Source: an uncultured Candidatus Binatia bacterium
Lineage (GTDB): Bacteria > Desulfobacterota > Binatia > UBA9968 > CAXXLF01
DNA length: 64,000 nucleotides
Direction: 5' to 3'
Assembly (NCBI GenBank): GCA_965218425.1
Contig: OZ244621.1
Span: 3,936,001-4,000,000 of the forward strand
The translations under genes and the position numbers were made by a program. Below, one piece after another: positions 19,663-49,173 of the stretch. The stretch's first letter is position 1. Each line of letters opens with the position of its first letter. Below the pieces are notes generated by a model, which saw nothing but the letters and a program-made list of their open reading frames with translations, did no database searches and had not been told where the DNA came from.

Positions 19663-20469
19663 CTATCCCGTGGGTGGATTTTGCCGCGATCGCACCGGTT
19701 TGCCCGCACGGACATCTTCGCAGAAACTACGAACCGCTTCGTAGAAGGGTACTGCAACCGGGCCGTAGTTGGCCCGGGGCCGGTCCAACTGCTCGACACT
19801 GAAGCCGATGGTGCCATGGGTGACTCCGATATTGCCACTGCAGTCATCACCCGAGCCAAAGCCGCTGATGGTGGGGACAGTGACTTCCTCTGTGATACGC
19901 TTTGCTAAATCCGGGGGTACCCGCGTTAGCAACAGAGAAAAGGATCCCGCCGCTTGCAAGGCGCGGGCATCGTTCCAAACTTTTTCTTCTGCGACACTCG
20001 CCCCTTCCGAGCGATACCCCCCACTACCCATTGACGTCATGGGTGTCAGACCCATATGGGCCATCACGGGGATACCTGCCTTCACGATGGCTTCAACGGT
20101 GGGCGCGTACTCCGCTCCCACCTCTAACTTCACTGCCTGGCACTCACCCTCCTGAATGAGCCGGCCGGCGTTCCGGATCGCCTCCTCTTTGTTGACCTGA
20201 TAGGACATGAAGGGCATGTCTCCTATGACCAACGCGTGTTTGCTGCCCCGGCTCACGGACCGGGTCATCAGAACCATTTCATCCATGGTCACCGAATTAT
20301 TGTCGTCATGGCCCAACAGGTTCCTCCCGCCGCTGTCTCCCACAAGGATCATATCCACTTCAGCGCGGTCGATGATTTGAGCCATGGAAAAATCATAAGC
20401 GGTCATGACCACAATCTTTTTCTTTTCAGCCCTCATTCGATTTAAATCCGGAATAGTAACTCGTGCCAT
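19663..20469 (-). CDS. panB: PanB-like (ketopantoate hydroxymethyltransferase family) protein with a divergent active site
   Basis: TAYD, LVGDS, GDMPFMSY, VKLE, HMGLTP; LECVP motif replaced by LTRVP. Confidence 0.75.
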   Translation of the reverse strand: MARVTIPDLNRMRAEKKKIVVMTAYDFSMAQIIDRAEVDMILVGDSGGRNLLGHDDNNSVTMDEMVLMTRSVSRGSKHALVIGDMPFMSYQVNKEEAIRNAGRLIQEGECQAVKLEVGAEYAPTVEAIVKAGIPVMAHMGLTPMTSMGSGGYRSEGASVAEEKVWNDARALQAAGSFSLLLTRVPPDLAKRITEEVTVPTISGFGSGDDCSGNIGVTHGTIGFSVEQLDRPRANYGPVAVPFYEAVRSFCEDVRAGKPVRSRQNPPTG

Positions 20470-20569
20470 GAGAACTCCTTTCCTTCTCAACCGTCCAAAT
20501 ATTCTAAGATCGATACCCGTTGCCTTTTGTCATGAGCACAATGAACGTACATTCATACTGTTGTCCAAC

Positions 20570-22012
20570 TCAACCCTTCGGCAACCACCCCGCCATATCC
20601 CACTTTTCCCAAACCTCTTTTCGTCGTTCCTTGCTAAACACATTGACGGGTGGAAAGTCCTTGATCCGATCGAAGGTCCGGCATCCGTTAAGAATCAGCC
20701 GTTTGTGCAGGATGTCTCTCTCGTTTATTCTATCCTCCATAGTGCGTAGCGGGTTAAAAAACCAATCACTCTGAGTCACGCTGACTCGCACACCGGTGGT
20801 AGGATCAAATCGCGTCCCAACCGCCCAAAGCACTTCGGAAGGATCCTCCGCGTTCACATCGTCGTCCACGAGGATAAGTAAACGACTCGGCAAATTAGTC
20901 TTGTCGAGGAATCTCATGATACGGTCCGCGTCATCCTCACTTTGCTGATCAACGGAAATGACCGTGGCCCCTAACACGGCAAGGCTCGCGATCCGTTTTA
21001 CGGGGAGTCCCAATTTTTGCATACGGGCGAGCATACCCGTGGCGGTACGCATGGAAAGGCCAAAGTGGTAAGAGCCCTTAATCGGCGCAAAGGGGGGCGC
21101 ACCGGTCAGAATTGGGTTGTTTCGGTAGTAGAGCGCCTTGACCCGAATGACTGGCTCTGCAATGGCTGTGGCCATATAGTATCCCGTCCACTCTCCAAAT
21201 GGACCCTCGGTCCTTGATTCCTCTTCAGGCGGAGGAATCTCTCCTTCAATGGCGATTTCGGAGCTTGCGGAGATGGGTAGACCGGTAACGGGACCCGCAA
21301 CGACAGGCACCGCCTCTCCGGCGAGGAATCCCACGTACTCGTACTCGGGTATATTTGATGGGCAGCCTGTTGCTCCCGACGCCGTGTGAAAGATGAGGGG
21401 TTCGGGACCGAAGGATACGGCCACGGGGCAATTCTTTCCCTCTTTCCAGTATTTGCGCATGATTTTCCAGCCGTCCTTGCCTGTACCGGGCAAGATACCG
21501 GTCGTATTGCGATCGTGGAGTTGCGCACGATAGGTCCCTACATTGGTAAAACCGGTTTCCGGATCCTTCTGGATCACGGCATGGGCGGTGCCGATGAAGG
21601 GACCTCCGTCTAGCTCATGCCAGGTGGGGACAGGGAATTGCAGCAGGTCCACATCGCTGCCCGTTTTCACGTTTTCGAAGATGGGTCCTCTGTCGACCCA
21701 AACCGGCGGAATCGGCTTGTAGGCTTCCCAGCGTTTCTGCCAGGTTGATATGAAATCGGCTTCCGGCAAATCTGGGTCGGCGCCAAGCAACAGCAGGGAC
21801 CGGCGTCTTGTGGAGCAAAGGTTGACGGCAAGCTTGTAATCAGGAGGATGACCGGCTACCCGATCAAACAGTAAGGCTGGACCTTGGTTCTCAAAGGACA
21901 GCTCGCAGATGGCACCGATCTCATGTTTTGGATTCGCCCCGCTGATACGATGGAGTTCGCCGTGCTCTTCGAGCTGTTGAAGGAACATTCTTAGATCTCT
22001 CATGGTACTCAT
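20570..22012 (-). CDS. UbiD-family prFMN decarboxylase
   Basis: DLR.FL..LE..GEL, GPALLFD, DGGPFIGT, NVGTYR, EGPFGEWTGYY. Confidence 0.92.
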   Translation of the reverse strand: MSTMRDLRMFLQQLEEHGELHRISGANPKHEIGAICELSFENQGPALLFDRVAGHPPDYKLAVNLCSTRRRSLLLLGADPDLPEADFISTWQKRWEAYKPIPPVWVDRGPIFENVKTGSDVDLLQFPVPTWHELDGGPFIGTAHAVIQKDPETGFTNVGTYRAQLHDRNTTGILPGTGKDGWKIMRKYWKEGKNCPVAVSFGPEPLIFHTASGATGCPSNIPEYEYVGFLAGEAVPVVAGPVTGLPISASSEIAIEGEIPPPEEESRTEGPFGEWTGYYMATAIAEPVIRVKALYYRNNPILTGAPPFAPIKGSYHFGLSMRTATGMLARMQKLGLPVKRIASLAVLGATVISVDQQSEDDADRIMRFLDKTNLPSRLLILVDDDVNAEDPSEVLWAVGTRFDPTTGVRVSVTQSDWFFNPLRTMEDRINERDILHKRLILNGCRTFDRIKDFPPVNVFSKERRKEVWEKWDMAGWLPKG

Positions 22013-22069
22013 CCCTTCCATTTATTATCAGTCTGTTTGAAGTGACCGTGCAAATGCAGACATCCGTTC

Positions 22070-23050
22070 TCACGATGACCCACTCGACGTGGGAGACCGT
22101 TCCGCCTCCCAATACGCCACACCCATTCCCATAATGCCGCTGTAAAAAGGTTCATAGGCCAGAACTCTGGCCGGTTGATCTCCAACCGCGCCTAGCAGGA
22201 CAATCCAACTCCTCATCTCAATATCCCCGTTATCGAGGAGATCCTTAGAGGTAAGCTCGGCAAGTTTTCCGCCCTGTCCACTGGACATTAGGTCTAGGCA
22301 TTTCCGATCAAACTCCTCGCTGATGGACCCATAGGTATAGGGGCCTGTGTAGTGCTTATAAGGATACCCCCCGGTGAAATGGGAAAGGCCGCCGGAGGCA
22401 TAAATAGCCACCCGCTCTCCCGAGGGCCGCCCCACGATAATTTGTTGCATCGCCTGACCCAACCGGTAGCACCGCGAAGGACTGGGCGCTGGCACATGAA
22501 TGGCGTTTACGAAGATAGGAACAACTGGAATATCCGCATCAGGGACAACTGTCCGCATAATGGGCGCGTGGGCATGGGCCAGGAGTTCATCGTTGGGAAA
22601 GGACCGGCAAAAGGACACATCAAACTCACGCTCGACGAGGCCGCTCAAAAGGTCTTGCGCCAATTCAGAATGGCAGCGATAACCGGGGCCTTTCTCGCGT
22701 CGCCCGTCGATTCGCTCCGTAGTATACAGGGAGTCGCCCGTGTAGATGGCAATCTGTGGCACGTTGTCGTCCTTGAAGTGTTCGTTCTGATCGTCTCCTA
22801 TAACCAGGAGCACATCCGGTTTCTTCGCCTTCAATGTCTCCCGGAGAAAGGTTAGCCCATCCCTCACCCGCTTGTACCTGGTGAGCCTCTCATCCGGAAT
22901 TTCCTGGGCAACCTTGGGATGAATGGGTGGCTCCTGGCCGTACCGGCGGGCATACATGGCCATGTTCATGTTCCGCCTCTGGTCCCAACTGCTGGGTTCA
23001 GACAAAGCAAAAGCATGAGAAGACGCCATACCCGCGACAATCTTTCCCAT
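22070..23050 (-). CDS. LigB/DesZ-like (class III) extradiol ring-cleavage dioxygenase
   Basis: MGKIVAGMASSH, GDDQNEHF, HAH, IYASGGLSHF, EEFDR, EMRSWI. Confidence 0.85.
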   Translation of the reverse strand: MGKIVAGMASSHAFALSEPSSWDQRRNMNMAMYARRYGQEPPIHPKVAQEIPDERLTRYKRVRDGLTFLRETLKAKKPDVLLVIGDDQNEHFKDDNVPQIAIYTGDSLYTTERIDGRREKGPGYRCHSELAQDLLSGLVEREFDVSFCRSFPNDELLAHAHAPIMRTVVPDADIPVVPIFVNAIHVPAPSPSRCYRLGQAMQQIIVGRPSGERVAIYASGGLSHFTGGYPYKHYTGPYTYGSISEEFDRKCLDLMSSGQGGKLAELTSKDLLDNGDIEMRSWIVLLGAVGDQPARVLAYEPFYSGIMGMGVAYWEAERSPTSSGSS

Positions 23051-23063
23051 TTTTTTCTCCTTT

Positions 23064-24305
23064 TTAATCTCGTTCCGACACCTGATGAGACATATATATT
23101 TCTTTTCTTTGCTCCGACGACTGTAAAATTCCCAAACACACCTCCAGGGTCGCCTCTCCCCATCGTCCGTCGTGGAGCATGGGCTTACCCAACACCACTC
23201 CGTTGTAAAGCTCTTCGATTTCGGCTTCCCGTCCGCGAACGCCAGGCTCGAGGGGAACCTCCTTTTTCTCATTGCCATAGATAAAAACGCCATCAGGAGA
23301 CTGCCTCATGTCTCCCTTCGTACAGGTCACCACGGTCAAGCCAAAAAACTGCTGGTGTCTTGTCTGGGACTCCGGACCGCCGCGCCCCCCGCCCTTCTCC
23401 CACCCATCGGGCATCTCTGGCCTTTCACCCACTTTGACGCTGCCGTAACGCATCTTTTCCTTCATCTCATCGAGGACTCGTTCTCTCTCACTACCGTCTG
23501 TTTCTTTTAATCTGTTGTAATTCTGCCTGGCTCTCATGTTTTTCTCGGGATATCTCGCTTGGCCCCCTTCTCCGATCCACCAAAAGAGTTCAGCCGTGTC
23601 AAAAAACCCATAGCCGTTAAATACGAGAGTCGCCGACACCCCGTCTTCAAACTCGAGGTAGCATGAGTAGCCTCCCTCACCAGGACGGGTAAGGTCCCAC
23701 CGACCCGCCATGGCACGAACGCTACGGACCTTGCCGCCGCCCAGCACCCGCACGAGGTCTACTTGATGCGGACCCTGGTTTAGAACCACTCCCCTGCTCA
23801 TTCTCAATGCATGATCGGGATAAGGCCGTACCATAAAATCGTTAAAATTCCACGTTTGGATCATGCAAAGGTCACCCAGTTCCCCGCTCCTGATGATCTC
23901 CCTCATCTTTCGAATTGGGCTATCATATCCGTGGCTGTGCCCGCACAGCAGCTTAACACCGTATTTCTCCGCGGCCGCATTCATTCGTTCACAGTCCTCA
24001 ACGGTGAGGGCCATGGGCTTTTCCACAACCACATGCTTGCGGTTTTCCAGAGCGACGAGGGCGTGCTGGGCGTGCAGTTCGTGGGGTGTAGCGATGTAGA
24101 CCACATCCACATCCGAGCATTGGCAGAGATCTTCCACGCTGTGATAGACTTTTGCCTCCAGTTCCTGCTGGACCAGTTTGAGGGAGCTCTCTCTAGTATC
24201 CGCTGCCGCAGTAATTTTAATCCTGGGACTATTGATATAAGCAGGCAGGATTTCGGTGGCCGCTTCTCCAAGGCCCAGGAGACCCAATTTCAAAACCCCA
24301 GACAT
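23064..24305 (-). CDS. Gfo/Idh/MocA oxidoreductase, phthalate 4,5-cis-dihydrodiol dehydrogenase-like
   Basis: GLG, YIATPH, VEKPMA, NQGPHQVD, GYGFFD, HQQFFG, HDGRWG; directly downstream of a Rieske oxygenase. Confidence 0.82.
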   Translation of the reverse strand: MSGVLKLGLLGLGEAATEILPAYINSPRIKITAAADTRESSLKLVQQELEAKVYHSVEDLCQCSDVDVVYIATPHELHAQHALVALENRKHVVVEKPMALTVEDCERMNAAAEKYGVKLLCGHSHGYDSPIRKMREIIRSGELGDLCMIQTWNFNDFMVRPYPDHALRMSRGVVLNQGPHQVDLVRVLGGGKVRSVRAMAGRWDLTRPGEGGYSCYLEFEDGVSATLVFNGYGFFDTAELFWWIGEGGQARYPEKNMRARQNYNRLKETDGSERERVLDEMKEKMRYGSVKVGERPEMPDGWEKGGGRGGPESQTRHQQFFGLTVVTCTKGDMRQSPDGVFIYGNEKKEVPLEPGVRGREAEIEELYNGVVLGKPMLHDGRWGEATLEVCLGILQSSEQRKEIYMSHQVSERD

Positions 24306-24329
24306 AATCTTCCCTTTGCGGCGGCCTTT

Positions 24330-25610
24330 CTACAGGCGGACCTCAGCCTCCAAGTCCTTGGAGTGATCCTTCCACTCTTTGGAATTGGGTAGGACTCCGT
24401 TATAGGCAACGATCCGAAACCGATTGGCGTTAGGCTCGCGTACGACATTGCCGGGTTCCCGGCCCTCCATGAGGTCGTTGATTGCTTTAACCATAACCTT
24501 GCGTGCCGCTACGATCGCCATATCCATGGATGTGAGATGTTCCATGCAACGGTCCTGTACAGGACCCTGCCCTTCTGTGGCACAGAGATCCTGGATTACA
24601 AAGTCTATGCCGATGCCGGTGTAGCTCTGATTCTTCATGGCCTCTCTATCCTGCTGATACCGATTGGCCTTGTTGCGCGCCGGCTTATAATCCCGCGTTC
24701 GGTCACTAGAGCCGCGACTTGACCACGCTACGTCAACAGGTTTGTCACGGTTGAAAATGAAGGTATATTTCCAATGGTTCGTATCATCGATGGGCACGTG
24801 CCAATTGACCATGTAACCGTCTATCCCGCGTGGTACTCCCGGGAAGGCAGTAAAGTTAGGCATCACAAAGTCGGTCAAGTAGAGTTGATACTTGTCGTCT
24901 CCCATATCACGGCGAATTTTATAGCTCCTGACACCAATCCCGGTCAGTTCGGCGTCTGCCGCCTCATACTCTGCTGCCGATCCACGACCCCTAATCTGTT
25001 CCTCGGCGGGAAGCACGGCAGCGCCGACGTTCCCTCCAATGCCCCGGTTCATGCGGTTATAGTGCAAAAATGACAGATGAGATAGATCGATGTTGCCTTC
25101 GTTGGCCTGCAAATAGTTGCACTGGTGCAAGAGCTTTGTAGCAGAACGGAATTTCCCGGGACCGATCAGAAATTCATAGTTGGGGAACAGAGGAGGCTCC
25201 CCAGGCCCCAGGTATGCGAATATGGTCCCTGCCCGCTCCTCACAGGGATAGGCCGGGTGACGGATGGCCTCACGGTGTTCCCCCCCTCCAGGCTCGCCGG
25301 GCTGATCCAGACAACGCCCGTGAATGTCATAGAGCCAACCATGATAAATGCACCTCAACCCACCGTCTTGCACCCGACCGTAACTCAAATCCGCGCCCCT
25401 GTGGGAGCAGTGAATATCCAACAAACCCGGCCGACCCTGGTCATCCCGGAATAGGACTAGATCCTCCCCTAGGAGCCGAATGGGCAAGGGAGCCCCACCC
25501 GGAGGCAGTTCCTCTGAGAGAGCCGCGGGCTGCCAGTAGCGCCGCATTAGCTCCCCACAAGGTGTCCCGCGATCCGTTTGAGTTAGTAGCTCGGTCTCGT
25601 GCGTGGTCAT
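24330..25610 (-). CDS. Rieske non-heme iron oxygenase, phthalate 4,5-dioxygenase-like (copy 1)
   Basis: GELMRRYWQP, CSH...CIYH, NYLQANEGNIDLSHLSFLH, VPIDD, QD. Confidence 0.92.
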   Translation of the reverse strand: MTTHETELLTQTDRGTPCGELMRRYWQPAALSEELPPGGAPLPIRLLGEDLVLFRDDQGRPGLLDIHCSHRGADLSYGRVQDGGLRCIYHGWLYDIHGRCLDQPGEPGGGEHREAIRHPAYPCEERAGTIFAYLGPGEPPLFPNYEFLIGPGKFRSATKLLHQCNYLQANEGNIDLSHLSFLHYNRMNRGIGGNVGAAVLPAEEQIRGRGSAAEYEAADAELTGIGVRSYKIRRDMGDDKYQLYLTDFVMPNFTAFPGVPRGIDGYMVNWHVPIDDTNHWKYTFIFNRDKPVDVAWSSRGSSDRTRDYKPARNKANRYQQDREAMKNQSYTGIGIDFVIQDLCATEGQGPVQDRCMEHLTSMDMAIVAARKVMVKAINDLMEGREPGNVVREPNANRFRIVAYNGVLPNSKEWKDHSKDLEAEVRL

Positions 25611-25625
25611 AGCTCACCTCTTGGA

Positions 25626-27260
25626 TTATGAAACTTGACGCTTCCGCTTTTCAGCCTGGAACTTATCTCCTACCTCTGTGTATTTCCCTTGGCGAATCAA
25701 ATCCGCCTCTTCCTGCAAATCCGGGCTCCAATACCCCATCATGTAACCATGCCAAGGCTCCTGTAGTCTGGGAGTAGGCAGGTCATTCCGACTGCCCCAA
25801 ATCTGCAAGGCCCTCTCCATGTACTCTTTGCGGGGCAAAGCTAAAGGGGGGAATGGATACTTGCGCGTAGCATTGATCAGCGTGAGATAAAACTCCTTGC
25901 GGCCACCGGCACCTTCTTCCTCGTCACCCTTTCTTATGGGGGTAGCCGAAGGGTCAAGGCGTCCGCTTCTGTGAATCGCCGAAGGGTCAAATCGACGCTT
26001 TCCCCCAGGAACCACAAAGACATCGTCATTGGGCTGGGTACGAAAGCTCAAGGCCCACACCAAAAGCTCCGGGTCACGCAAATTAATGTCAGAGTTCACT
26101 GCAACCACATACTTGGCATCGGCATTGAGCGCGGCCTCTTGCAAAATTTCCGGTATAATCCCCTGAGGAGTTCCATCCCCGACGCGAATCAAACAAAAAT
26201 TGCTACCCCCTCCCATCTGGGGAAAATAAACCTCTTCAATGGGGAATTCGCATTCATACTTCAACCGATGGTACAGCTGGCCACTGTAGCAAAACCCAAA
26301 TACCAAATTACAATCGTTTGGTGCAAACCCCACAGGTATGGGCGTAAACATGGCGTTTTTCCGGTGCGTCACCGCCGTCACCTGCATCACAGGACACGGG
26401 TTACGGTCCACGTTGAGATGACCTGGGTACTCACCAAACGCACCCCGTGGCTCCAACTGTTCCGTTGACAGGACTCCTTCAATAACTGCTTCCGCATTGG
26501 CCGGAACCTCCAGGGGCACCGTGCGGCAACGAACCAGCTCCTCTGGCCTCCCAACGATTCCTCCCGCCACCCCCAGTTCATCCACACCGTAAGGAATCCT
26601 CGCCGAGCCCACCAACATCACAGCAGGGCTGGACCCTATCACAATGGCGATTGGCAGTCCCTCTCCGACCTTACGCGCCGCCTCCCTATGATAAAACATG
26701 GCATGCTTATTCGGACCAATGCCAGCCGCAATGCGATCCCTGCCGCGAAAAAACCCATTATAGGTCCCCACGTTTCGAACACCACTCCCGGGTTCTTTTG
26801 TGATCATCGGCAATCCCGTACGTATCATGCCACTAAACCCAGGTTCCTCCACGGGAACGGGCAACTCATCCAAACCTAACTCCTTAAGCTCGTCCCCCAC
26901 ATGGACCACCTCCTGAACCGGGCCATGGTCCACCACCACCGGAGACACCGGACGCCTGAGGCCGTCATGCCACTTCTCAAGCATCTCCACATAGGTCTCA
27001 CAACCGACTCCCAGGGCCAACACCTCCTCGGATACTCCGTATACACCCGACAGCACCGACATCTCATACTTTTTTCCGCTGGCCCCGACCACGTTGTCAA
27101 ACAAAAATATCTTCCGCTCCGATTCAGGGACACCCCTCATCTGTATTCGATAGAAGGGCATAAGTTCGGTGTCTTTGTTGATGGGCTCACGAAATCGATA
27201 GAGCTTTCCCCGCGCTTCAAGCAGTTCAACAAGTTCGCGCAGATCCCGACAGTATGCCAT
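25626..27260 (-). CDS. UbiD-family protein (long type) with atypical catalytic motifs
   Basis: DLRELV.LLE, VRCRTVPLEVPANAEAVIEG; NVGTYN and RGAFGEYPG instead of N.GTYR and EGPFGE. Confidence 0.88.
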   Translation of the reverse strand: MAYCRDLRELVELLEARGKLYRFREPINKDTELMPFYRIQMRGVPESERKIFLFDNVVGASGKKYEMSVLSGVYGVSEEVLALGVGCETYVEMLEKWHDGLRRPVSPVVVDHGPVQEVVHVGDELKELGLDELPVPVEEPGFSGMIRTGLPMITKEPGSGVRNVGTYNGFFRGRDRIAAGIGPNKHAMFYHREAARKVGEGLPIAIVIGSSPAVMLVGSARIPYGVDELGVAGGIVGRPEELVRCRTVPLEVPANAEAVIEGVLSTEQLEPRGAFGEYPGHLNVDRNPCPVMQVTAVTHRKNAMFTPIPVGFAPNDCNLVFGFCYSGQLYHRLKYECEFPIEEVYFPQMGGGSNFCLIRVGDGTPQGIIPEILQEAALNADAKYVVAVNSDINLRDPELLVWALSFRTQPNDDVFVVPGGKRRFDPSAIHRSGRLDPSATPIRKGDEEEGAGGRKEFYLTLINATRKYPFPPLALPRKEYMERALQIWGSRNDLPTPRLQEPWHGYMMGYWSPDLQEEADLIRQGKYTEVGDKFQAEKRKRQVS

Positions 27261-27278
27261 ATAACCCCCTCCTATGAC

Positions 27279-28429
27279 TTACTTACCCCCCCTTCTCAAC
27301 GCCTCTTTGACTAATTTGTGGGCAGCAACGGCCGTCACCTCTGCTGAAGCCTCCAGGTATTTGACCCCCTTGATACGCCGATACTCCACCGGGATAACAT
27401 CTTTTGAAATGTCCGTTCCCATGGAGTTTCCAGAAGACGGGCTGTATGCAACAGAAATTCTCTGAAGGACCTCCTGTCCCTCACGCGAAAGCACCCAATT
27501 GATAAAAACCTTTGCCGCATTGGGGTGCGGCGCCCGATTGAGCAGGGCGATCACGCCGCGAATCGGCGTCAGGACCCCTCCTTCTTTAAATTGAGTTGGG
27601 TGAAACCCATTGACTGGGAGCCCTTGCGCCACAGCATCATCCGCACCCCGTGAGAAGAAATAAATGCCAAATTTTCCTACAGCCAGCCAATCCATCATCT
27701 GTCTATAATCCCGGCTTAACGCAACATCCATCTCGCCAAACAGTCGCCTTATAAACTTGGGTCCAAGGTTAGGGTGATGATAAAAGAGGAGAAGCCCGCT
27801 GCCACTAATGCCACGAACACGGGGATCCCTGGGATCGGGAACTATAATCTTTCCTTTCCATTTCGAGTCCACCAAGTCCCAGTAAGACTCGATTTCACCC
27901 GGATTCACGAGATTTGTGTTGTAGGCAATGTCCGCTGCCCGTACCGCCCCTTCAAAGACAAAGAAATATTTACCCTCGGCATCCGTATAGTGGTGTTTGC
28001 TCTTCCACCATTTGGACTGGTCCAAAACCTCCGGCAGGATGAAAGCAGGAGGCATGGGGTCCAGGATGCCCTTGTTCACGAAAAAACTGATTTGGGTATG
28101 ATCCTGTTGACCAAAAGAGATGTCCTTGATAAATTTGTTGGCCCGTCTTTCACTCAGCAGAACTTGAGTTCTTTGATGGACAGGACCGACGGTTCCTTCG
28201 ACGACCTTTATTCCAGGATATTTTTTTGAAATTCCCTATAGTACGCCGAAAACCCTCGCACAGTTGAAAGCACCACCCGCCCCTCTCTTGTCGCAGCTTC
28301 GACTGTTTTCCGCCATTGCGCTTGCCAGCCGGGTCTGCCCACACCCATTTGCGCACGGGACGCAGCCGGGAGCAAGTTGAATGTCGCGACTACTGCAAAC
28401 AGAAAGGAAAACTTTATAGCCTTCGTCAT
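27279..28429 (-). pseudogene. ABC solute-binding protein with a single frameshift at T7 28221-28227
   Basis: Signal peptide + WRKTVEAATREG; adding one A restores FQKKYPGIKV... continuous into ORF 27279-28079. Confidence 0.85.
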
Positions 28430-28504
28430 TGGGCACCTCACCTGATTTCTACAACCACTTGTCGGCGGCATGCGCAAATCGTAAATTTGCAAAGCGAGTG
28501 ATAT

Positions 28505-29797: not shown

Positions 29798-29865
29798 TCC
29801 TCTATCATGGATTATTGCTTTTCCCTACCTTTACCCTCCTGTATTGAGCCTGAAACGAAGGTGTC

Positions 29866-39702: not shown

Positions 39703-41007
39703 CTACGACCGACCTTCATAGGACGGCCTGCCAATCCAGCCGCGACCCTCAGCAACCAACCGGCGGCAGTAATCTCTCCAATCGACGGAAGCGGGGATGA
39801 TTCCGTAAGTGGCCACGATGGGCGGCAGAGTGCCCGATGGGTCTCGCAGCACGCCTGGCGGGTCACGCTCCTCCTGGACATCCTTGATAGCGCTCACGAG
39901 AAGCTTACGTCCCACCACGATGGGCGCATCAGAGGGCATGAGATGCTCCTGGGTCCGGTCCTGGATGGGGCCTGCTCCCTCTGTTGCGCAAAGATCCTGG
40001 GCCGCAAAATACTTCATGTCGATACCGCTATAGCTTTCCGATTTCATGGCCTCCCGTTTCTGCAGGTAACGGTTAGCCTTGTGCGGAATTGCCCTGTAGT
40101 CCGGCGGAGGAGTAAAGCTGTCACGGCTTCGCCTAAGCTCCTCCTTGTTGTAGGGCTTATCCTTATCGAATGAAATGACGTACTTCCAATGATGCGTGTC
40201 GTCAATTGGCACATGCCAGTTGAGTCCTCCGGCAGGGAATGCATAGTAATTTGGCAGAATCAGCGTCCCAACTCGTATGTACCGTTTGTCGGGTGCGATC
40301 TTACGGATCTTGCAAACCCTGAGTCCAAGACCCTCCACCACTTCCGCTTCACAGGTTTCCAGGTATGGAGCTGAGCCTCCTGAGCACAATTGCTCCGCGG
40401 AACCTGCGCCAGGGGGACGATTGGCTCCGGCGCTCACCTGCAAGTCTCGCGCGCTGTAGTGCAGAAATGAAACATGCAGGAGATCGATGTTACCCTCATT
40501 GCCTTGGAGGTAATTGCATTCGCTATAGATCTTTGTGGCGAATACATGTTCTTCCGGGTGAGCCAAGAAATCGTATTTGGGAAGTACCGGCGGCTCGCCA
40601 TGTCCAAGGTAGGCCAAGACAACCCCGTTACGTTCCACACAAGGATAAGCTGGATGACGGATGGAGCCCCGATGCTCACCCCCTCCCGGTTCCCCCGGTT
40701 GATCCAGGCAGCGACCGTTGATATCGTAAAGCCAGCCGTGGTAGATACACCGGAGTCCTCCATCTTCCACACGGCCATAACTCAAATCCGCCCCCCGATG
40801 TGAGCAGTGAATTCCAAGCAACCCCGGACGCCCCTTATCATCTCGAAACAAGACGAGATCTTCTCCCAGGAGCCGAACGGGCAGTGGAGCCCCACCTGGA
40901 GGCAACTCTTCTGAGAGTGCCGCGGGCTGCCAGTAACAGCGCAGCAACTCTCCGCAGGGAGTGCCGGGACCCGTTTGTGTCAACAATGCGTTTTCTTCTT
41001 TTGTCAT
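39703..41007 (-). CDS. Rieske oxygenase, phthalate 4,5-dioxygenase-like (copy 3)
   Basis: CSH...CIYH; NEGNIDLLHVSFLH; AQD. Confidence 0.92.
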   Translation of the reverse strand: MTKEENALLTQTGPGTPCGELLRCYWQPAALSEELPPGGAPLPVRLLGEDLVLFRDDKGRPGLLGIHCSHRGADLSYGRVEDGGLRCIYHGWLYDINGRCLDQPGEPGGGEHRGSIRHPAYPCVERNGVVLAYLGHGEPPVLPKYDFLAHPEEHVFATKIYSECNYLQGNEGNIDLLHVSFLHYSARDLQVSAGANRPPGAGSAEQLCSGGSAPYLETCEAEVVEGLGLRVCKIRKIAPDKRYIRVGTLILPNYYAFPAGGLNWHVPIDDTHHWKYVISFDKDKPYNKEELRRSRDSFTPPPDYRAIPHKANRYLQKREAMKSESYSGIDMKYFAAQDLCATEGAGPIQDRTQEHLMPSDAPIVVGRKLLVSAIKDVQEERDPPGVLRDPSGTLPPIVATYGIIPASVDWRDYCRRLVAEGRGWIGRPSYEGRS

Positions 41008-41087
41008 AGGCCCAATCCCTCTTTATTATTAATTAAATGGAAAACCAATAGAGTTTGATGAAGTTTTTGGAATACATGATCCATTGC

Positions 41088-42217
41088 TTACCGTCGAGCT
41101 TTCTTAGCCTCCGCTAGTGCCTTATTAACAACCTTATAGACCGGTCTCATATCAGGGTTCCTATCCATCTCAATATAATCAACTCCATCTACCCATCTAA
41201 TTTCGGGCAGAACATTGTCTTTTGGAATATCCAATCTGCGGGACTCCGCATCTTGTACGCCCTTCAACACTCTCTGCAACTCCATCTGGCCGTCTCTGGA
41301 AAGAAGCCAGTTAATAAAGACTCTGGCCGCATTGGGATGGGAGGTATTCTTCATGAGCACCAGATTGCCAGAGTGAGAAGAAACTCCAGCTCCCTCTCCC
41401 CAATCTTTGGAATTAAAGGAATCCACTGGCAGTCCTTGTGCTTTAGCTTGATCAATTCGCGAACAGAAAAAACATAGGGGAAATTTTCCCACCGCTAGCC
41501 AATCGGCCCCCTGACGGGTTTCCCGGAACAGCGTGAGGTCCATCTGTCCGAATAGACGCCTTATAAACTTTGGCCCAAGCTTCGGATTGTAGTAAAAAAA
41601 AGCATATTCGCATTGCCTGGACCAGGTGTCCTGATGTCCCGAGCTTCTATTTTTCCCTTCCACTTGGGCTCCAAGAAGTCCCAATAGGAATCGAACTCCT
41701 TCGGATTGACAAGATTGACGTTAAAATGAGCGCTTCCCGAGGAAACCGCACTCAAATAATTAAAAATATGTTTTCTCTCAGGATCAGAAAAAAAGTGACC
41801 CCTACGCCATTTGGATTTGTCCGTTACCTCCGGCAGGATTAAAGCGGGCTTGATGGTATTCAGCGCCTTGGCTTTATAAAGACTGTTGGTGGACCTCACG
41901 CCCGCACTGTAGACGTTAGGAATGTTCTTTCCGGCACGTCGCTCCGCTAAAATACGCTGGGTGATATGACGGGTTTGGCCGGCGACTGAGACGATCTTGA
42001 TATCTGGATACTGCTTCCGAAAGGCACGAAGAACCGCATCGTAGCCGACCTTCATGTAAACTGTAACCTGGCCTTCCATTTTTGCCGCTGATAAGGTTTT
42101 CTCCCATTCAGTCTTCCAGTTGGCCCGAGTCACCGTGCTTAGTCCCCGCAAAGCTACAATTAAAGTGAGACACCTCACCACGCTCACTTGGAAAGCAACC
42201 TTGCGAAGGGGGCGCAT
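41088..42217 (-). pseudogene. ABC solute-binding protein with a frameshift at A8 41594-41601 (close paralog of 33235-34362)
   Basis: ORFs 41561-42217 and 41088-41684 join at MLFF|YYNPKLG. Confidence 0.85.
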
Positions 42218-42302
42218 CTTTGACTACCTCCCATGCATCAAAATTTCTTTTGCAAAAGACGAGCCTTTGCGGAAAAATCCCTCGCCTGCCAGGTCACTAT
42301 TC

Positions 42303-43727
42303 TTATAACCACTCCGCCATCTTCCACTTATCCCATGATTCGGTGCGCGCCGCGTCGCTAAAAAGATTGACAGGCGGAAAATCCTTGAGGCGCTCAAACG
42401 GCCTGCAACCATTTATGATGAGACGTTTGTACGGCAATGGACCCCGCCGACCCCTGTCCTCTACAGTTCGAAGAGGATCGAGGAGCCAGCGGGTTTGCGT
42501 GACGCTTACCCGGAGCCCGTTGGTGGGATCGAAACGCGTCCCCACAGCCCAAAGGACGTCCAAGGGATCTTCCGGATTGATGTCGTCATCCACTAGGATA
42601 AACAGCCGATTGGGGCCCTGCATCTTGTCCAGCGCTTTGATGATGTGATCCACGTCGTCTCCCTCTTCCTGGTGAACGGAAATAACTGTGGCCCCCATCT
42701 TGACCAAGCCGGTCACGCGGCGAACCGGAAGCCCCTGCCGTTCCAACCGACTCCACATACCCGTGACAGAACTCATGGGAAGCGAGAAAGAGTAGGCGTC
42801 GACGTGAGGCTTGAGCGGGGACGCACCAAACAGAATAGGATCTGTACGATGATACATGGCCCTCACATGAATGACCGGTTCAGGGACGGAGCCACCCATG
42901 TAATAGCCGGTCCATTCCCCAAAGGGACCTTCAGGCCTTGCCTCTGATTCGGGTGGTGGTATTTCCCCCTCAATGGCGATCTCGGAGTGTGCCGAAATGG
43001 GTATGCCCGTGAGGGGCCCTTCGATGATGGGAATCGGCTCATCCAAAATGAATCCTGCATAGTCATATTCAGGCACGCGCTTGGGACAACCCGTAGAACC
43101 CGAAGCGGTAAGAAAGATGATGGGTTCTGGTCCCAGAGAGATAGCCACTGGGCATGGCTTACCCGCCCGCCAGTATTTTTCCATAATGGCCCTACCGTCA
43201 TTGGCGGGCTCACAGAAAAGACCCGTGGTGTAGCGGTCGTGGAGTTGCAGCCGGTAGCTGCCCAGATTGACCCAGCCGGTGTCGGGGTCCTTCACCATAA
43301 CGGCAAGACCCGTTCCGATGTAAGGGCCACCATCCAGTTCATGCCAGACGGGCACCGGTATTTTTAACAGATCCACTTCTTCCCCATTGAGGACATTTTC
43401 CATGAGCGGACCGTTGTCTACTTTCACCGGCGCAATTGGTTTATACGCGTCCCATCGCTTCTTGAAACGTGACATGGCTTCGGCTTCAGACAGCTCGGGG
43501 TCCATGCCGATGCCGAGGAGAGATCGTCTCCTGGTGCTGCACACGTTCGAAGCCACGCGGTAATTTGGCGAGTACCCCTCAAATTTGTCGAACAGGAGAG
43601 CTGGTCCCTGACGTTGAAACGCCAGTTCTGAAATCACGCCAACCTCAAATTTTAGATTGGCGCCACTAATCTTTCGAAGCTCTCCAATGGTCTCAAGTTT
43701 GTCGAGAAACGTTCGTAAATCGAGCAT
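42303..43727 (-). CDS. UbiD-family decarboxylase (close paralog of 20570-22012)
   Basis: NLGSYR, EGPFGEWTGYY, NLCSTRRRSL-like segment shared with the paralog. Confidence 0.92.
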   Translation of the reverse strand: MLDLRTFLDKLETIGELRKISGANLKFEVGVISELAFQRQGPALLFDKFEGYSPNYRVASNVCSTRRRSLLGIGMDPELSEAEAMSRFKKRWDAYKPIAPVKVDNGPLMENVLNGEEVDLLKIPVPVWHELDGGPYIGTGLAVMVKDPDTGWVNLGSYRLQLHDRYTTGLFCEPANDGRAIMEKYWRAGKPCPVAISLGPEPIIFLTASGSTGCPKRVPEYDYAGFILDEPIPIIEGPLTGIPISAHSEIAIEGEIPPPESEARPEGPFGEWTGYYMGGSVPEPVIHVRAMYHRTDPILFGASPLKPHVDAYSFSLPMSSVTGMWSRLERQGLPVRRVTGLVKMGATVISVHQEEGDDVDHIIKALDKMQGPNRLFILVDDDINPEDPLDVLWAVGTRFDPTNGLRVSVTQTRWLLDPLRTVEDRGRRGPLPYKRLIINGCRPFERLKDFPPVNLFSDAARTESWDKWKMAEWL

Positions 43728-43745
43728 GAACTTAACCCCCTTTGG

Positions 43746-44846
43746 TTAGCCTTTCTCACGTTGCTTTCGAGCAACGGCATCATCAAACATACGGCGAATT
43801 TCAGGATCCTCGTCCTCATATTCGATCTGTGTTCCTCCCTCTTTGGTCGATTTCGAGACCCCTTCTCTCGTGGCCGCTTTCCTCACACCAAAAGGGTACT
43901 TCGCACTTCCGTTACGTAATGCCAATTGCCGGACCGGCCCTGGTCCGATATTGAAATGCTGATGAAACCAGCCAGTGGGTGGACTGAAGACGCTACCCAC
44001 CTTCCAGTCCACTCTTTCTACCCGATCTCCTCTCCCATCAGAGAATGGATGGATTCCAAGCTCATTGGGCCACATCAAGCTGTAACCTTCGGAACGGAGA
44101 ATAACCAATATGGCTCCCCCTCCATGGTGATGGGCTTTGGCATAGCGCCCACTGGGGAAATCAGTGAAATGACCGATAAGGCTGTTTTCGCAGATCTCGA
44201 ACTGTATATTCTGGTAACCGGAACCGCGCCTTTCATTCTCAGGAAGCGAAAGCTCTTTGGTGTCGGGAATAAAATTGGTTTCCCAGATCCACCCTGAGCG
44301 GTAAACTGATTGCGTCCTACGGTCCAAGGAAAAATAGTCCGCTTGTCCGCCATACCGGTCGGTAAACTTAAAGTCACAGTCAAAAACAAACTCTTCATTG
44401 TGAAACAGGTCAAAAACCAGCGGGGCGGAGGTGGTGGCCATGAAAAATGCAGGTTTTTTTCCTGTATTGACCATTCGATACTGGACGTTCAAAGGAAGGG
44501 CGAAGAGACTCCCCTCCCTCCAGTTAATTCGATTGGCCGCCTCCCCTGGACCAAGAATTTCGGTCTTTCCGACTCCCTCCGTGACGTAGACGATCTGTTC
44601 AAAAAGATGCTTCATAGGTTTGGTGGACTCTCCAGGAGGAATCTCACCCGCATAGATACCGGTAATTCCTTCCATTCCCTTCAGGTGTATGAAAGTAGCC
44701 TCGCAACCCAACCTTTCCCAATACCGCAAAGGGTGCTTGCGTAGGTCCGTTACACCCAGTCCATCTATGATGGGTATCCTCTGGGCCTCCATCCAATTTT
44801 CGTAAGGAGTCAAGTTCTTGGGCCTTTTTTTCTGTTCGGCGCTCAT
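43746..44846 (-). CDS. Bicupin protein (same family as 31082-32182)
   Basis: KHLFE, ETNFIPD, AHHHGGGA...WFHQHFN. Confidence 0.8.
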   Translation of the reverse strand: MSAEQKKRPKNLTPYENWMEAQRIPIIDGLGVTDLRKHPLRYWERLGCEATFIHLKGMEGITGIYAGEIPPGESTKPMKHLFEQIVYVTEGVGKTEILGPGEAANRINWREGSLFALPLNVQYRMVNTGKKPAFFMATTSAPLVFDLFHNEEFVFDCDFKFTDRYGGQADYFSLDRRTQSVYRSGWIWETNFIPDTKELSLPENERRGSGYQNIQFEICENSLIGHFTDFPSGRYAKAHHHGGGAILVILRSEGYSLMWPNELGIHPFSDGRGDRVERVDWKVGSVFSPPTGWFHQHFNIGPGPVRQLALRNGSAKYPFGVRKAATREGVSKSTKEGGTQIEYEDEDPEIRRMFDDAVARKQREKG

Positions 44847-46081
44847 GGCTGATGGTCGCCCCTTTCAACCTCTAACGTCTTGCAGTAACTTTTCCAGTTT
44901 GTACCCTCTGGAATGACACCGTTAGTTCCAATGATGCTGGGAAACCGATTCTTGCCGGGATCTCTGACCACTCCCGGGGGATCATGTCCCTCCTGGACGT
45001 CTTGAATGGCTTTCAAGAGAACCTTCCTCGAGACCACGATGGGCGCGTCCGATGCCTCCATATGCTCTTGGGTCCTGTCCTGAATCGCACCCATGCCCTC
45101 TGTGGCGCACACATCCTGTATTTGGAAATTAACACCGATGCCGCTGTAACTCTCCGCCTTCATGGACGCGCGGTCCTGCATATACCGATTGGTCATATTT
45201 CGAACGGGCTTATAGTCATCGGTCATCTGGGAACGGCGCTCCTGAATCATTTTCATATCCAGGGGCTTTTCTCGATCGATGGTGAACGTATACTTCCAAT
45301 GATGAGTGTCATCCATAGGCACATGCCAGTTGGGGTATCCTCCAGGAACCACCGTAAAGTCCGGAAGAACGAAAGTAGCAACACGGATATAAGTTTTACC
45401 TGAATCCAGCTTGCGAATCCTGCCAATCCTCAGGCCCACGTCCACCAGTTCCGCTTCGCAGGTTTCCATACCCGGGAACGCACCCCTGCCGGACAACTCG
45501 GTTTGCCCTTCGGCCAAGTCCCTCTTGCTGTAATGTAAGAAAGGAACGTGAATGAGATCGATGTTTCCTTCGTTGCCCTGCAGGTAGTTACACTCGTGGT
45601 AAAGTTTGTTCACGGCCACCTGATTGTCAGGCAGTGTAAGAAAATCGTATTGGGGAAGTAGCGGCGGTTCTCCGGGTCCGAGATACGCAAAGATGACCCC
45701 GGCTTGCTCCTCGCAGGGATAGGCGGTGTGGCGGATGGAATCCTTATGTTCTCCTCCGCCAGGCTCTCCGGGCTGATCCAGGCACCGGCCCTGTCGGTCG
45801 TAGAGCCATCCGTGATAAATGCATCTCAACCCGCCATCCTCAACCCGGCCATAGCTCAGATCAGCACCCCTATGGGAGCAATGGATATCCAGCAATCCCG
45901 GACGCCCCTGATCATCACGGAAGAGCACGAGATCCTCCCCCAGCAACCTGACAGGTACAGGGGCTCCACCTTGAGGCAGCTCTTCGGACAGCGAAGCGGG
46001 CTGCCAATAGCGCCGCATGAGGGACCCGCAGGGTGTTCCAGGTCCCACCTGAGTCAGCAGATCGTTTTCTTCCTCTGTCAT
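44843..46081 (-). CDS. Rieske oxygenase, phthalate 4,5-dioxygenase-like (copy 4)
   Basis: CSH...CIYH; NEGNIDLIHVPFLH; QD. Confidence 0.92.
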   Translation of the reverse strand: MTEEENDLLTQVGPGTPCGSLMRRYWQPASLSEELPQGGAPVPVRLLGEDLVLFRDDQGRPGLLDIHCSHRGADLSYGRVEDGGLRCIYHGWLYDRQGRCLDQPGEPGGGEHKDSIRHTAYPCEEQAGVIFAYLGPGEPPLLPQYDFLTLPDNQVAVNKLYHECNYLQGNEGNIDLIHVPFLHYSKRDLAEGQTELSGRGAFPGMETCEAELVDVGLRIGRIRKLDSGKTYIRVATFVLPDFTVVPGGYPNWHVPMDDTHHWKYTFTIDREKPLDMKMIQERRSQMTDDYKPVRNMTNRYMQDRASMKAESYSGIGVNFQIQDVCATEGMGAIQDRTQEHMEASDAPIVVSRKVLLKAIQDVQEGHDPPGVVRDPGKNRFPSIIGTNGVIPEGTNWKSYCKTLEVERGDHQP

Positions 46082-46105
46082 CGCATCACGTGAGCGTCAA
46101 GGGAA

Positions 46106-46333
46106 TCATTCATCGTGGCGCGGCCGGCTATTTTCCTTAAGAATGCCAACCTCCGAAGCCCCGTGCACCACCAACCTACCCTCCTTTTTGGCAGCCTCCA
46201 CGGTCTCGGACCAACCTCCCGCCTGGGCGGATGCGAAGCCAGCCAAACTGACGCACAAGAAAACCAAAGAGATAACACCCAACCGCATCACCCGAGAGGC
46301 ATTCCAGGCGTTATTCATTGGCTTAAAGATCAT
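46106..46333 (-). pseudogene. Truncated SBP (signal peptide plus first helix only)
   Basis: ...ASAQAGGWSETVEAAKKEGRLVVHG, then stop at 75 aa. Confidence 0.75.
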
Positions 46334-46354
46334 GGTTCACCCTCTTTCGTACCC

Positions 46355-47812
46355 TTAATCGAATAGGTCTTTCCATTTTTTCATTATGTTCTCTCGGAAC
46401 TCGCGGCTATTGGCGCAAACGGGTGGAAAATCCTTGATCCATTCAAAGGGCCTGCAAGCATTGATCACAAGATTGTGAGCGTTGTAATGCTTTCTCCCCT
46501 CGTCCTTGTTCGGATCGGAACGCTCCTGCGGACGTAACCGAGGATCCAATTGCCAGACCGCCGTTCCAGGTATCACCCGAACCCCATGCTCCGGCAAACA
46601 CCTGCTGGCAATCGCCCAAAGAACCTCGTCGCTGTTTGAAACGTCGATATCGTCGTCCACTACGATCCAGGTTTGGTTTCCGTTGTACTGTTCGCCACCC
46701 GGAACGAGAAGCCGGATTACATCGCTGACATGCTCCGCATACATTTGCTTGATTGCCACCACATTCAGATGAGGCTTCGATAGGCCAAAGACCCTAGTCA
46801 CCCCCGGTATCGCTGCCCTATTCAGTTTTTCTATGGCCCGCATGTTGTCACCACCCAGGCTGGCAAAATACTCGCAGCCCACTGGCCGCGTAGGGGGCGC
46901 TCCAAAAATGACGGGGTCGTTACGGTGATAAATGGCCTTGACCTCGATGATAGTCTCCGGTCGCCTCCCGTGAGCATAGTAGCCTGTCCATTCACCAAAT
47001 GGACCTTCCGGCACAAGGGTATCCTGAGGCGATGGGATAAAACCTTCGATGGCTATCTCACCCCAGGCGGGCATTGGCAAACCGGTAAACTCCCCCTTGA
47101 TCACAGGATAAGGCGATTGATGAATGAATCCCGCCACCTCAAATTCGGAAACCCCTTGTGCAGCATAGTGGACTCTGGACCCGGAGAGCGAAGTGAGGAC
47201 CGGTTCTTGGCCCACGGATACCATGACCGGGCATTTCTCTCCCCGGTCCCAGTGCTTTCTCCGAATCATATCTCCATGCTTGCCATGCTCAATAAAAATC
47301 GCACAGGTTTTACGATCATGAACAGAAACACGGTAGGCGCCACAATTCACGAAGCCTGTGTCGGGATCTTTTTGAATGACACAAACGCCGGTGCCGATAT
47401 AACGGCCCCCGTCATTCTCGTGCCATTTGGGAGTGGGGAATTTGAACAGATCGATGTCGTCACCTTTGAGAACATTTTCGAGTATGGGGCCCGAGGTCAC
47501 CGTCTCCGGCGCCACCGGACGAAAGTTCCGCATCGTGGCTGCACTCCGTTCGGCCAATGCCTGTGGTGAGAGATCAGGGGGAAGCCCGAAGGCGATGGCC
47601 GTTCGTTTGGACGTATTGAATAGATTCGAAGCCACCCGATAGCCTTTGGGATAGCCCTTGATCTCGTCAAACAGCAGGGCCGACCCCCGCTTCTCTGTTA
47701 AAAGCTCCGTGATACCGCCGATGTCATCCTCCCAATCGGCCCCCACAACCTTTTTGAGTTCCTCCGCCTCCTCTAGTTTCTCCAAAAATTCACGCAGATC
47801 ATTCCACAGCAT
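46355..47812 (-). CDS. UbiD-family decarboxylase
   Basis: DLREFL, DGGRYIGT, NCGAYR, EGPFGEWTGYY. Confidence 0.92.
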   Translation of the reverse strand: MLWNDLREFLEKLEEAEELKKVVGADWEDDIGGITELLTEKRGSALLFDEIKGYPKGYRVASNLFNTSKRTAIAFGLPPDLSPQALAERSAATMRNFRPVAPETVTSGPILENVLKGDDIDLFKFPTPKWHENDGGRYIGTGVCVIQKDPDTGFVNCGAYRVSVHDRKTCAIFIEHGKHGDMIRRKHWDRGEKCPVMVSVGQEPVLTSLSGSRVHYAAQGVSEFEVAGFIHQSPYPVIKGEFTGLPMPAWGEIAIEGFIPSPQDTLVPEGPFGEWTGYYAHGRRPETIIEVKAIYHRNDPVIFGAPPTRPVGCEYFASLGGDNMRAIEKLNRAAIPGVTRVFGLSKPHLNVVAIKQMYAEHVSDVIRLLVPGGEQYNGNQTWIVVDDDIDVSNSDEVLWAIASRCLPEHGVRVIPGTAVWQLDPRLRPQERSDPNKDEGRKHYNAHNLVINACRPFEWIKDFPPVCANSREFRENIMKKWKDLFD

Positions 47813-47874
47813 TTTCAGTTTCCTTCTTTTGTGCGACCTTTTTGATTTCTATCCGTCCACGCTTCAAAACTGAT

Positions 47875-49173
47875 TCACCGGGCTGCCCTGGTATGCCATC
47901 CGGTCCCTTCCTGCTCCAGCTGATTGCAGTACTCTTTCCAATTCATGGAATCAGGCAGGACGCCATTGGTGGCTACAATCTCTGGAAATCGATTCGACTT
48001 CGGATCCCTGATCACATGGGCTGGGTCGCGCCCCTCCTTCACATCCTGTATGGCTTTTTGAATGACCTTACGGCACATAACAATGGGAGCGTCCGATACC
48101 ACGAGGTTCTCCTTGGTCCGATCTTGGACGATACCCGCCCCCTCAACGACGCATAGGTCCTGTGCGGCAAAATACTTCGGAGAGATGCCGCTATAAATGG
48201 TAGTTTTCATTGTCTCACGGTCCTGCAGATAGCGATTGGAATGATTGGCCACTGGCTTGTAGCCGGGAGCCAGCGCCAATTCGTTTCTCCGGTTCTCTCC
48301 CCGTCCGATGGCTTTCTCCCTGCTAAAGGCAATAATGTATTTCCAGTGATGAGTATCATCGATGGGGACATGCCAGTTCACTCCGCCACCGGGTATGACG
48401 GTAAAGTTCGGAAGCACAAATGTGGCGATCCGGATATATGTCCTACCCTCTCCCATGTCCCGTAGCTTGCAGATCCTGACTCCAAGGTCCAGCAATTGAG
48501 CATCGGTGGATTCCATGCCCGGATCCGGGCCCCTCCCCGTCAATGTTCCAGGGTTGCCGAATCGCTCCATGATCTGTTGGTACTCTTCGGGGTTCAACCT
48601 CTCCAGGTCTCTCTTGACAAAATGGACAAAGTTGTTGTGAATCAGGTCGATGTTGCCTTCGTTTCCCTGTAGGTAGTTGCATTCGGAGTAAAGCTTGTGG
48701 GCGGTTCGATGATCGTCGGGTACGTTAAAAAACTCATAGTTGGGAAGTAGAGGCGGGTCTCCGGGTCCCATGTAGGCAAAGACGATCCCTCCCCGCTCTT
48801 CGCAGGAGTAGGCAGGATGCCGAATAAAGCCTTTGTGTTCTCCCCCGCCGGGCTCACCTGGCTGATCGAGGCAGCGACCGTGAATGTCGTAGAGCCAGCC
48901 ATGGTAGATGCAACGCAACCCCCCGTCCTCCACACGGCCATAGCTCAAATCCGCCCCCCGGTGAGAGCAATGAATGCCTAATAATCCCGGCCGACCCTGA
49001 CCATCACGGAAAAGGACAAGATCTTCTCCCAGCAGCCGTACCGGTAAAGGAGCCCCCCCTTTAGGCAGTTCCTCCGAAAGGGCCGCCGGTTGCCAGTAGC
49101 GTCGCATGAGCTCCCCGCAGGGAGTCCCAGCTCCGGTCTGAGTCAGCAATTCATTCTCTTCTCTTGGAATCAC
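47875..49173 (-). CDS. Rieske oxygenase, phthalate 4,5-dioxygenase-like (copy 5; first gene of the array)
   Basis: GTG start after GGAGG; CSH...CIYH; NEGNIDLIHNNFVH; AQD. Confidence 0.92.
   Translation of the reverse strand: MIPREENELLTQTGAGTPCGELMRRYWQPAALSEELPKGGAPLPVRLLGEDLVLFRDGQGRPGLLGIHCSHRGADLSYGRVEDGGLRCIYHGWLYDIHGRCLDQPGEPGGGEHKGFIRHPAYSCEERGGIVFAYMGPGDPPLLPNYEFFNVPDDHRTAHKLYSECNYLQGNEGNIDLIHNNFVHFVKRDLERLNPEEYQQIMERFGNPGTLTGRGPDPGMESTDAQLLDLGVRICKLRDMGEGRTYIRIATFVLPNFTVIPGGGVNWHVPIDDTHHWKYIIAFSREKAIGRGENRRNELALAPGYKPVANHSNRYLQDRETMKTTIYSGISPKYFAAQDLCVVEGAGIVQDRTKENLVVSDAPIVMCRKVIQKAIQDVKEGRDPAHVIRDPKSNRFPEIVATNGVLPDSMNWKEYCNQLEQEGTGWHTRAAR

Follow-up and report, generated by a model that had tools for sequence, protein, structure and literature searches.

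A shuffled array of Rieske oxygenase and UbiD genes in a Binatia genome, with a conserved core that may follow a variant of the phthalate route

Introduction

In the 4,5-phthalate route, an aromatic acid is dihydroxylated, rearomatized, decarboxylated, and ring-cleaved, in that order (PMC13040137, section 2.3). The pht/oph systems of Comamonas testosteroni KF1 and Burkholderia cepacia DB01 use a single-subunit Rieske oxygenase of the phthalate 4,5-dioxygenase (PDO) family (PDB 7FJL), a Pht4-type dehydrogenase (7WZD), a decarboxylase step, and LigB-type cleavage, and all four are paralleled in a gene array that we analyzed in a 64,000-nucleotide window of a Binatia genome (C1:3936001-4000000 of source genome G000, a single contig of 4.46 Mb that is 97% complete). 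The array (window positions 19663-49173) differs from pht/oph in having UbiD in place of Pht5/OphC, no phthalate dioxygenase reductase, solute-binding proteins (SBPs) of the ATP-binding cassette (ABC) type, many paralogs, several replaced phthalate-binding residues, a single-chain LigB clade, bicupins, and a PanB paralog. We read the array as a collection of catabolic cassettes that has been shuffled, is partly decaying, and contains a conserved core. With a probability of roughly 0.55, this core degrades carboxylated aromatics or heteroaromatics along a modified phthalate route, with UbiD, an enzyme dependent on prenylated flavin mononucleotide (prFMN), standing in for Pht5/OphC after dihydroxylation and rearomatization and before ring cleavage.

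Other described systems share single features with the array. The Arg and catalytic Glu of PhdA from Mycolicibacterium fortuitum (7PDA) align with those of array UbiD 46355, but the two proteins are only ∼40% alike, and 46355 has no adjacent UbiX and is linked to PDO-family Rieske genes. The protocatechuate decarboxylase AroY performs the step proposed here, prFMN-dependent decarboxylation of a catechol acid, whereas it is distant in sequence (E about 1e-30); to our knowledge, AroY does not come from a Rieske/dihydrodiol operon. The 5,5′-dehydrodivanillate (DDVA) pathway of Sphingobium SYK-6, which consists of LigXa, LigZ, LigY, and LigW, has a LigXa_C Rieske oxygenase, an extradiol dioxygenase, a hydrolase, and a decarboxylase in common with arrays of this type, but its decarboxylase and hydrolase belong to other families and the array has a dihydrodiol dehydrogenase. 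Anaerobic phthaloyl-CoA decarboxylase (UbiD/UbiX) likewise employs UbiD in phthalate catabolism; that route proceeds via CoA and without oxygenases, the match to 8OZ5 is weak (E 1e-18), and a Pfam scan of the array revealed no CoA transferase or ligase. Our literature search, with supplements outside its scope, found no account of this Rieske-UbiD architecture, and the words "aromatic," "UbiD," and "Rieske" are absent from the main text of a Binatota genome survey (PMC8262859). If the proposal is correct, the array would represent an aerobic route with prFMN chemistry in place of Pht5, a natural panel of Rieske, UbiD, and LigB enzymes for (hetero)aromatic (poly)carboxylates with uses in plastic-monomer chemistry, lignin chemistry, and carboxylation biocatalysis, and an overlooked role for Binatia.

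Conserved linkage of Rieske and UbiD genes

Window proteins were identified by Pfam and NCBIfam scans, and genes are named by their lower window coordinate. The initial annotation had described 24 minus-strand loci with short gaps, and Pfam and translation recovered every one: five Rieske genes with a LigXa_C domain, five UbiD genes, two bicupins, two LigB-type dioxygenases, one Gfo/Idh/MocA-type dehydrogenase, one PanB-like gene, and eight SBP loci. Intergenic distances range from -4 to 273 bp, the 273-bp interval containing an SBP remnant. The core comprises Rieske 47875 (47875-49173; PF00355 and PF19301; 7FJL, E 3e-59), UbiD 46355 (46355-47812; PF01977, subclade A1), Rieske 44843 (44843-46081; assigned by Pfam, alignment, and synteny), UbiD 42303 (42303-43727; placed in subclade A2 by Pfam, motif, and tree), LigB-type dioxygenase 32209 (32209-33174), and PanB paralog 19663 (19663-20469).

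Genomes of relatives retain this core in shorter form. In G001, from the same genus, the locus reads PanB-LigB-SBP-Rieske39703-UbiD42303-Rieske44843-SBP-UbiD46355-Rieske47875; it has three Rieske and two UbiD genes, with no counterpart of the 20570-32182 block, of three SBPs, of UbiD 38123, or of either cupin. The G002 locus is shorter still and includes a hydrolase. Eight array genes common to G000 and G001 exhibit ratios of nonsynonymous to synonymous substitution (dN/dS) of 0.03-0.11 (0.05 for Rieske 47875 and 0.03 for PanB 19663), indicating purifying selection. Orthologs of Rieske 47875 and UbiD 46355 are adjacent in G001, G002, G024, G030, L022-L024, and L169; in the family of G024 and G030 the Rieske-UbiD order is reversed and is followed by a dehydrogenase, a PanB-like gene, and a cupin.

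A PDO-family Rieske gene lies within 3 kb of all 13 tree members of UbiD subclade A1, which span three Binatia families and one Chloroflexota contig; one of the 13, from the third family (G011), was found via its Rieske gene, which belongs to a neighboring subclade. The corresponding figure for subclade A2 (42303/20570) is 10 of 12, with one member lacking such a neighbor and one at a contig end. Among 72 more distant UbiD loci, many of them short, any Rieske match was present in six, two of which are A1/A2-type clusters already counted. Elsewhere in G000, an array-clade Rieske gene lies within 6 kb of seven of eight clade A and B UbiD genes versus 7 of 59 others (Fisher p 3e-5, for kin that are not independent). 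The Rieske-UbiD link is real at the subclade level and survives changes of gene order in other Binatia families, and the two PhdA-related UbiD subclades, the LigB subclade, and PDO-family Rieske genes occur together across three Binatia families, frequently in the company of a Pht4-like dehydrogenase and in no case with Pht5. The conserved part of the array is nonetheless smaller than the initial annotation supposed. A locus in another phylum, Chloroflexota (L033:148-15600), resembles the array: it combines UbiD-Rieske-dehydrogenase-Rieske with five SBPs, one additional UbiD and Rieske gene each, and a cupin.

Hidden Markov models built from window proteins matched 84 Rieske, 73 UbiD, 112 SBP, 83 cupin, 24 LigB, 19 Gfo, and 7 PanB open reading frames (ORFs) in G000, fragments included; near full-length copies number 79 for Rieske and 72 for UbiD, and Pfam Rieske-domain matches total 93. 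The array is the densest 30-kb Rieske-plus-UbiD window of this genome (5+5; runner-up, 3+6). Its 1:1 Rieske:UbiD ratio, once taken as evidence for parallel routes, is background because the genome-wide ratio is 79:72. The idea of one module reused five times fared no better. The five Rieske genes fall within one 19-member clade and are interleaved with paralogs of other loci rather than monophyletic, and the UbiD genes are spread over three clades (24-61% identity), each with a close relative elsewhere in G000. Mirror-tree (Mantel) tests, in which each Rieske was paired with the first UbiD downstream, detected no co-divergence (r -0.23, p 0.81 for 8 pairs; r -0.09, p 0.61 for 10; r -0.17, p 0.74 for the five of the array). 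The expected pairing in related genomes thus held for subclades in the neighborhood comparison, but not gene by gene. Rather than five parallel modules, the array comprises about two conserved routes (47875 with 46355, and 44843 with 42303 and LigB 32209) and a set of accessory cassettes.

The relation of UbiD to Pht5 was assessed genome-wide. G000 contains 27 Pht5-like ORF matches, from a set whose seed has neighbors carrying the Atlas name 4,5-dihydroxyphthalate decarboxylase; the nearest is 38 kb from the array, and the G000 search found none closer. Within 3 kb of 30 PDO-family Rieske genes, UbiD occurs at 14, a Pht5-like gene at 5, and both at none (p 0.03; 0.08 once the array is excluded). 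This pattern is suggestive, not strong, evidence that UbiD replaces Pht5 beside these oxygenases. The window also encodes an NMT1-like protein without a signal (13515-14498), distinct from the Pht5-like family; it is one of about 10 strong paralogs (17 matches) and has no match in the PDB.

Active sites of the oxygenases and decarboxylases

All five array Rieske proteins match phthalate 4,5-dioxygenase (7FJL; profile E 7e-83) and retain the Rieske Cys/His ligands, the bridging Asp, and the 2-His-1-Asp iron site. Their Rieske domains had been called near-identical; at 83-89% identity they are strongly conserved rather than that, whereas the divergence claimed for the catalytic domains was borne out (47-61%). 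Pocket-residue roles follow a PDO study (PMC8649396). Arg231 and Phe339 of PDO are conserved in all five. The Arg244 position holds Arg in 47875, 44843, and 39703 (39703-41007; sister to paralog C1:4343953 in the tree) and Tyr in 28505 (28505-29797; part of the accessory block) and 24330 (24330-25610; 7FJL, E 3.5e-68). Arg207 aligns with Arg in one alignment and not in another, and with Gly in 39703, the alignment here being ambiguous. Ser179, Ser182, Phe278, and Phe280 are substituted in every copy (by Leu; Leu, Val, or Asn; Lys; and Thr, Val, or Ile, respectively), and the Lys that replaces Phe278 is an invariant pocket residue. These alignments suggest that the array oxygenases likely bind carboxylated rings and are likely not phthalate dioxygenases proper. 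An o-phthalate-type specificity is at odds with the replaced pocket residues, and the substrates are probably not o-phthalate.

The five array UbiD proteins all score above the PF01977 cut-off. The RXnEX4(E/D) motif, described as required for efficient catalysis in PMC5818171, is present in 20570 (20570-22021; subclade A2, 61% identity to 42303), 38123, 42303, and 46355 (as R..E....E), and the closest solved structure to 46355 is 7PDA (E 1e-104). UbiD 25626 (25626-27260; subclade B) departs from the motif with the triad N..R....E, having Asn at Arg173, Arg at Glu277, and Glu282 in place. Among the best 120 of its 657 homologs, the first Arg is found in none, Arg occupies the Glu277 position in 94, and the last Glu is kept in 118. 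Paralogs of the 25626 type have dN/dS of 0.05-0.07, which again indicates purifying selection, and three adjoin Rieske genes with Tyr for Arg244. UbiD 25626 is, by alignment, a member of a non-canonical subfamily without the canonical Arg, and this Arg-relocated subfamily would test whether the motif is truly required. A second non-canonical type (Asn, Asp, Glu) is represented by C1:3775850 and its orthologs in G024, G030, L023, and L024, and is located inside a Rieske-UbiD cluster in family f3. Another subclade B protein, C1:252765, has the triad His, Arg, Lys; its cluster is damaged by an insertion sequence (IS) and also contains a Pht5-like gene.

Dehydrogenase 23064 (23064-24305) matches phthalate dihydrodiol dehydrogenase (7WZD, E 6e-86), which upholds its first description as dihydrodiol-dehydrogenase-like and makes it Pht4/OphB-like. 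A Pht4-like dehydrogenase gene directly follows each Rieske gene in G024 and G030. The dehydrogenase beside Rieske 47875 in relatives groups with C1:4345322, 360 kb away, and the one beside a 44843-like Rieske groups with 23064; because these partners group with different genes, a single dehydrogenase shared by all routes, as first envisaged, is doubtful. LigB-type (class III extradiol) dioxygenases 32209 (PF02900; 1B4U, E 5e-15) and 22070 (22070-23050) belong to a clade of eight members (support 1.0), all of which occur in Rieske-UbiD clusters only. An HsaD/BphD-like hydrolase is encoded inside the cluster in G002, G024, and G030 and in trans in G000.

Proposed pathway and alternatives

The genes present, their intact metal ligands and UbiD motifs, the subclade linkage, and the purifying selection are observations, whereas every reaction, the reaction order, co-transcription, and the electron donor are inferences. 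The SBPs would bind substrates and deliver them to an ABC transporter whose genes lie elsewhere, and the single-subunit Rieske dioxygenase would form a cis-dihydrodiol on the carboxylated ring. The Pht4-like dehydrogenase (23064 or a paralog in trans) would rearomatize this product, and UbiD, armed by the single UbiX of G000 (C1:1270269), would remove a carboxylate from the dihydroxylated ring, for which work on AroY offers a precedent with a catechol acid (PMC6644310). A LigB-type dioxygenase, or a bicupin, would then open the ring, and the hydrolase and PanB paralog would trim the product.

Several observations weigh against this phthalate-route variant. Besides the substituted PDO pocket and the lack of co-divergence, UbiD lies within 5 kb of 7 of 14 array-clade Rieske genes versus 16 of 60 others, which is not significant (p 0.11). 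One G001 locus has a dehydrogenase and two UbiD genes with the Rieske gene gone, the core has no in-cluster dehydrogenase in G001, G002, and L169, and one UbiD and four SBP loci of the array are broken. Electron supply is a further difficulty: no Rieske reductase of the ferredoxin-NADP+ reductase (FNR) or glutathione-reductase type was found in G000 (no match to PF00175, PF00970, or PF14759), and tblastn of G000 with FNR-domain ORFs taken from relatives (13 loci) gave no match. PF00175 was found in 10 of 31 genomes, not in G024 or G030, and most genomes of family f3 lack it. Finally, PhdA acts on unhydroxylated substrates, phenazine-1-carboxylate and a quinoxaline acid, according to PMC10850782.

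This activity of the closest solved relative of 46355 fits an alternative order, which we regard as unlikely, in which PhdA-related UbiD enzymes act first. They would take one carboxylate off a polycyclic or N-heteroaromatic polycarboxylate that is not yet hydroxylated, leaving the Rieske oxygenase to attack the remaining acid. Two UbiD genes often accompany one Rieske gene, and the HsaD/BphD-like hydrolases hint at multi-ring substrates; on the other side, ∼40% likeness to PhdA says little about substrate, and the apparent mutual exclusion of UbiD and Pht5-like genes beside PDO-family Rieske genes fits a shared role after hydroxylation. It is more doubtful that the Rieske proteins act in a LigXa-like manner on lignin-type methoxylated acids, as O-demethylases or monooxygenases; LigZ-like cleavage, a hydrolase, and UbiD for LigW would follow, and the PanB paralog would handle a one-carbon unit. 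The catalytic domain is Pfam LigXa_C, and Rieske-UbiD-LigB(-hydrolase)-PanB clusters without a dehydrogenase occur in G001, G002, and L169. LigXa also relies on a shared ferredoxin, not on a fused reductase, for its electrons. However, PF19301 includes PDO-like proteins too, and the Pht4-like dehydrogenase right after orthologous Rieske genes in G024, G030, and L022-L024 implies a dihydrodiol. Least probable is a recombination hot spot that collects unrelated catabolic paralogs under one promoter with no substrate hand-over between neighbors: families expanded across G000, content that differs greatly between G000 and G001, nearby IS elements and pseudogenes, and the missing mirror-tree signal suit it, but UbiD, LigB, and dehydrogenase genes of the same subclades recur beside the Rieske clade in three families despite inverted order, and in a second phylum.

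For the phthalate-route variant, the non-canonical UbiD subfamily and the missing reductase, neither of which the initial annotation had noted, are the sharpest questions raised by the array. Candidate electron carriers in G000 are a stand-alone Rieske ferredoxin that ends the suf operon (L132:7947-8255; C1:3101947) and the only stand-alone plant-type [2Fe-2S] ferredoxin, located after ispH (L111:6189-6476; C1:2004189), which has Asp for the third Cys ligand when judged against what we take to be the usual ligand pattern. The genome also has two 2-oxoacid:ferredoxin oxidoreductase genes and two heme-copper oxidase genes. A speculative extension, possible but improbable, is that Binatia hold a library of oxygen-dependent prFMN pathways. 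The Arg-relocated UbiD would perform non-canonical chemistry beside Arg244-less Rieske proteins, for example by decarboxylating a non-aromatic cis-dihydrodiol or partnering a canonical UbiD, and ∼90 Rieske proteins would draw on a common ferredoxin whose reduction involves no standard reductase.

Accessory genes and decay of the locus

Bicupin 43746 (43746-44846) has three invariant His residues in its C-terminal cupin and no sequence match in the PDB. Its structure model (predicted local distance difference test score of 89.8) matched only generic bicupin folds (template modeling score, TM, 0.40-0.49); the TM values of 0.46-0.47 against gentisate 1,2-dioxygenase (GDO) and SDO are like those for OxdC and seed proteins. 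This uncharacterized family has ∼80 matches in G000 and 1509 homologs, with no solved relative by sequence. The ortholog of the second bicupin (31082-32182) adjoins the PanB-like gene in G024 and G030. PanB paralog 19663 scores 228.6 for TIGR00222 (cut-off 207.55) and lacks both the active-site Glu and a pan context. All six PanB paralogs have Thr at this position, which we take to be that of the active-site Glu181 in E. coli, and only the housekeeping copy (C1:2533489), followed by a presumably panC-like ORF, has Glu.

Four of the eight SBP genes are intact (36977-38086, 35800-36915, 34532-35659, and 33235-34362, the last with a G001 ortholog). Three are frameshifted, with single breaks in 41088-42217 (near 41573-41600) and 27279-28429 (near 28226-28262) and two in 29866-31029, and one is a 5′ remnant (∼46140-46333) that has lost ∼940 bp relative to G001; the SBP at this place is intact in G001 and G002. 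Four of the five UbiD genes are intact, and subclade C UbiD 38123 (38123-39570), which has a frameshift near 39520, ∼18 codons past its likely start at 39570, is likely a pseudogene or N-terminally shortened. Contigs from runs X1 and X2, which may themselves be the source sample of the window sequence, cover 27200-47000 without gaps against the window, so the reading-frame breaks are not consensus slips; an X7 contig crosses the break at 28240.

An IS3 element lies directly upstream of the array on the same strand (49486-50636, by NCBIfam and comparison with G001); the insertion (49486-50879) lies at the 3′ end of a gene for a membrane protein, and G001 has this gene whole. At C1:249953-251857, a dehydrogenase gene is interrupted by an IS3 transposase with an identical score. 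Other split or truncated genes at 14812-17140 and 56108-57111 (a family 5 SBP, an amidohydrolase, and a sugar epimerase) are signs of general decay. Two 1095-bp IS copies, presumably IS630-like, flank the whole 49-kb catabolic region (3259-4353 and 52313-53407); they are 99.5% identical and in the same orientation.

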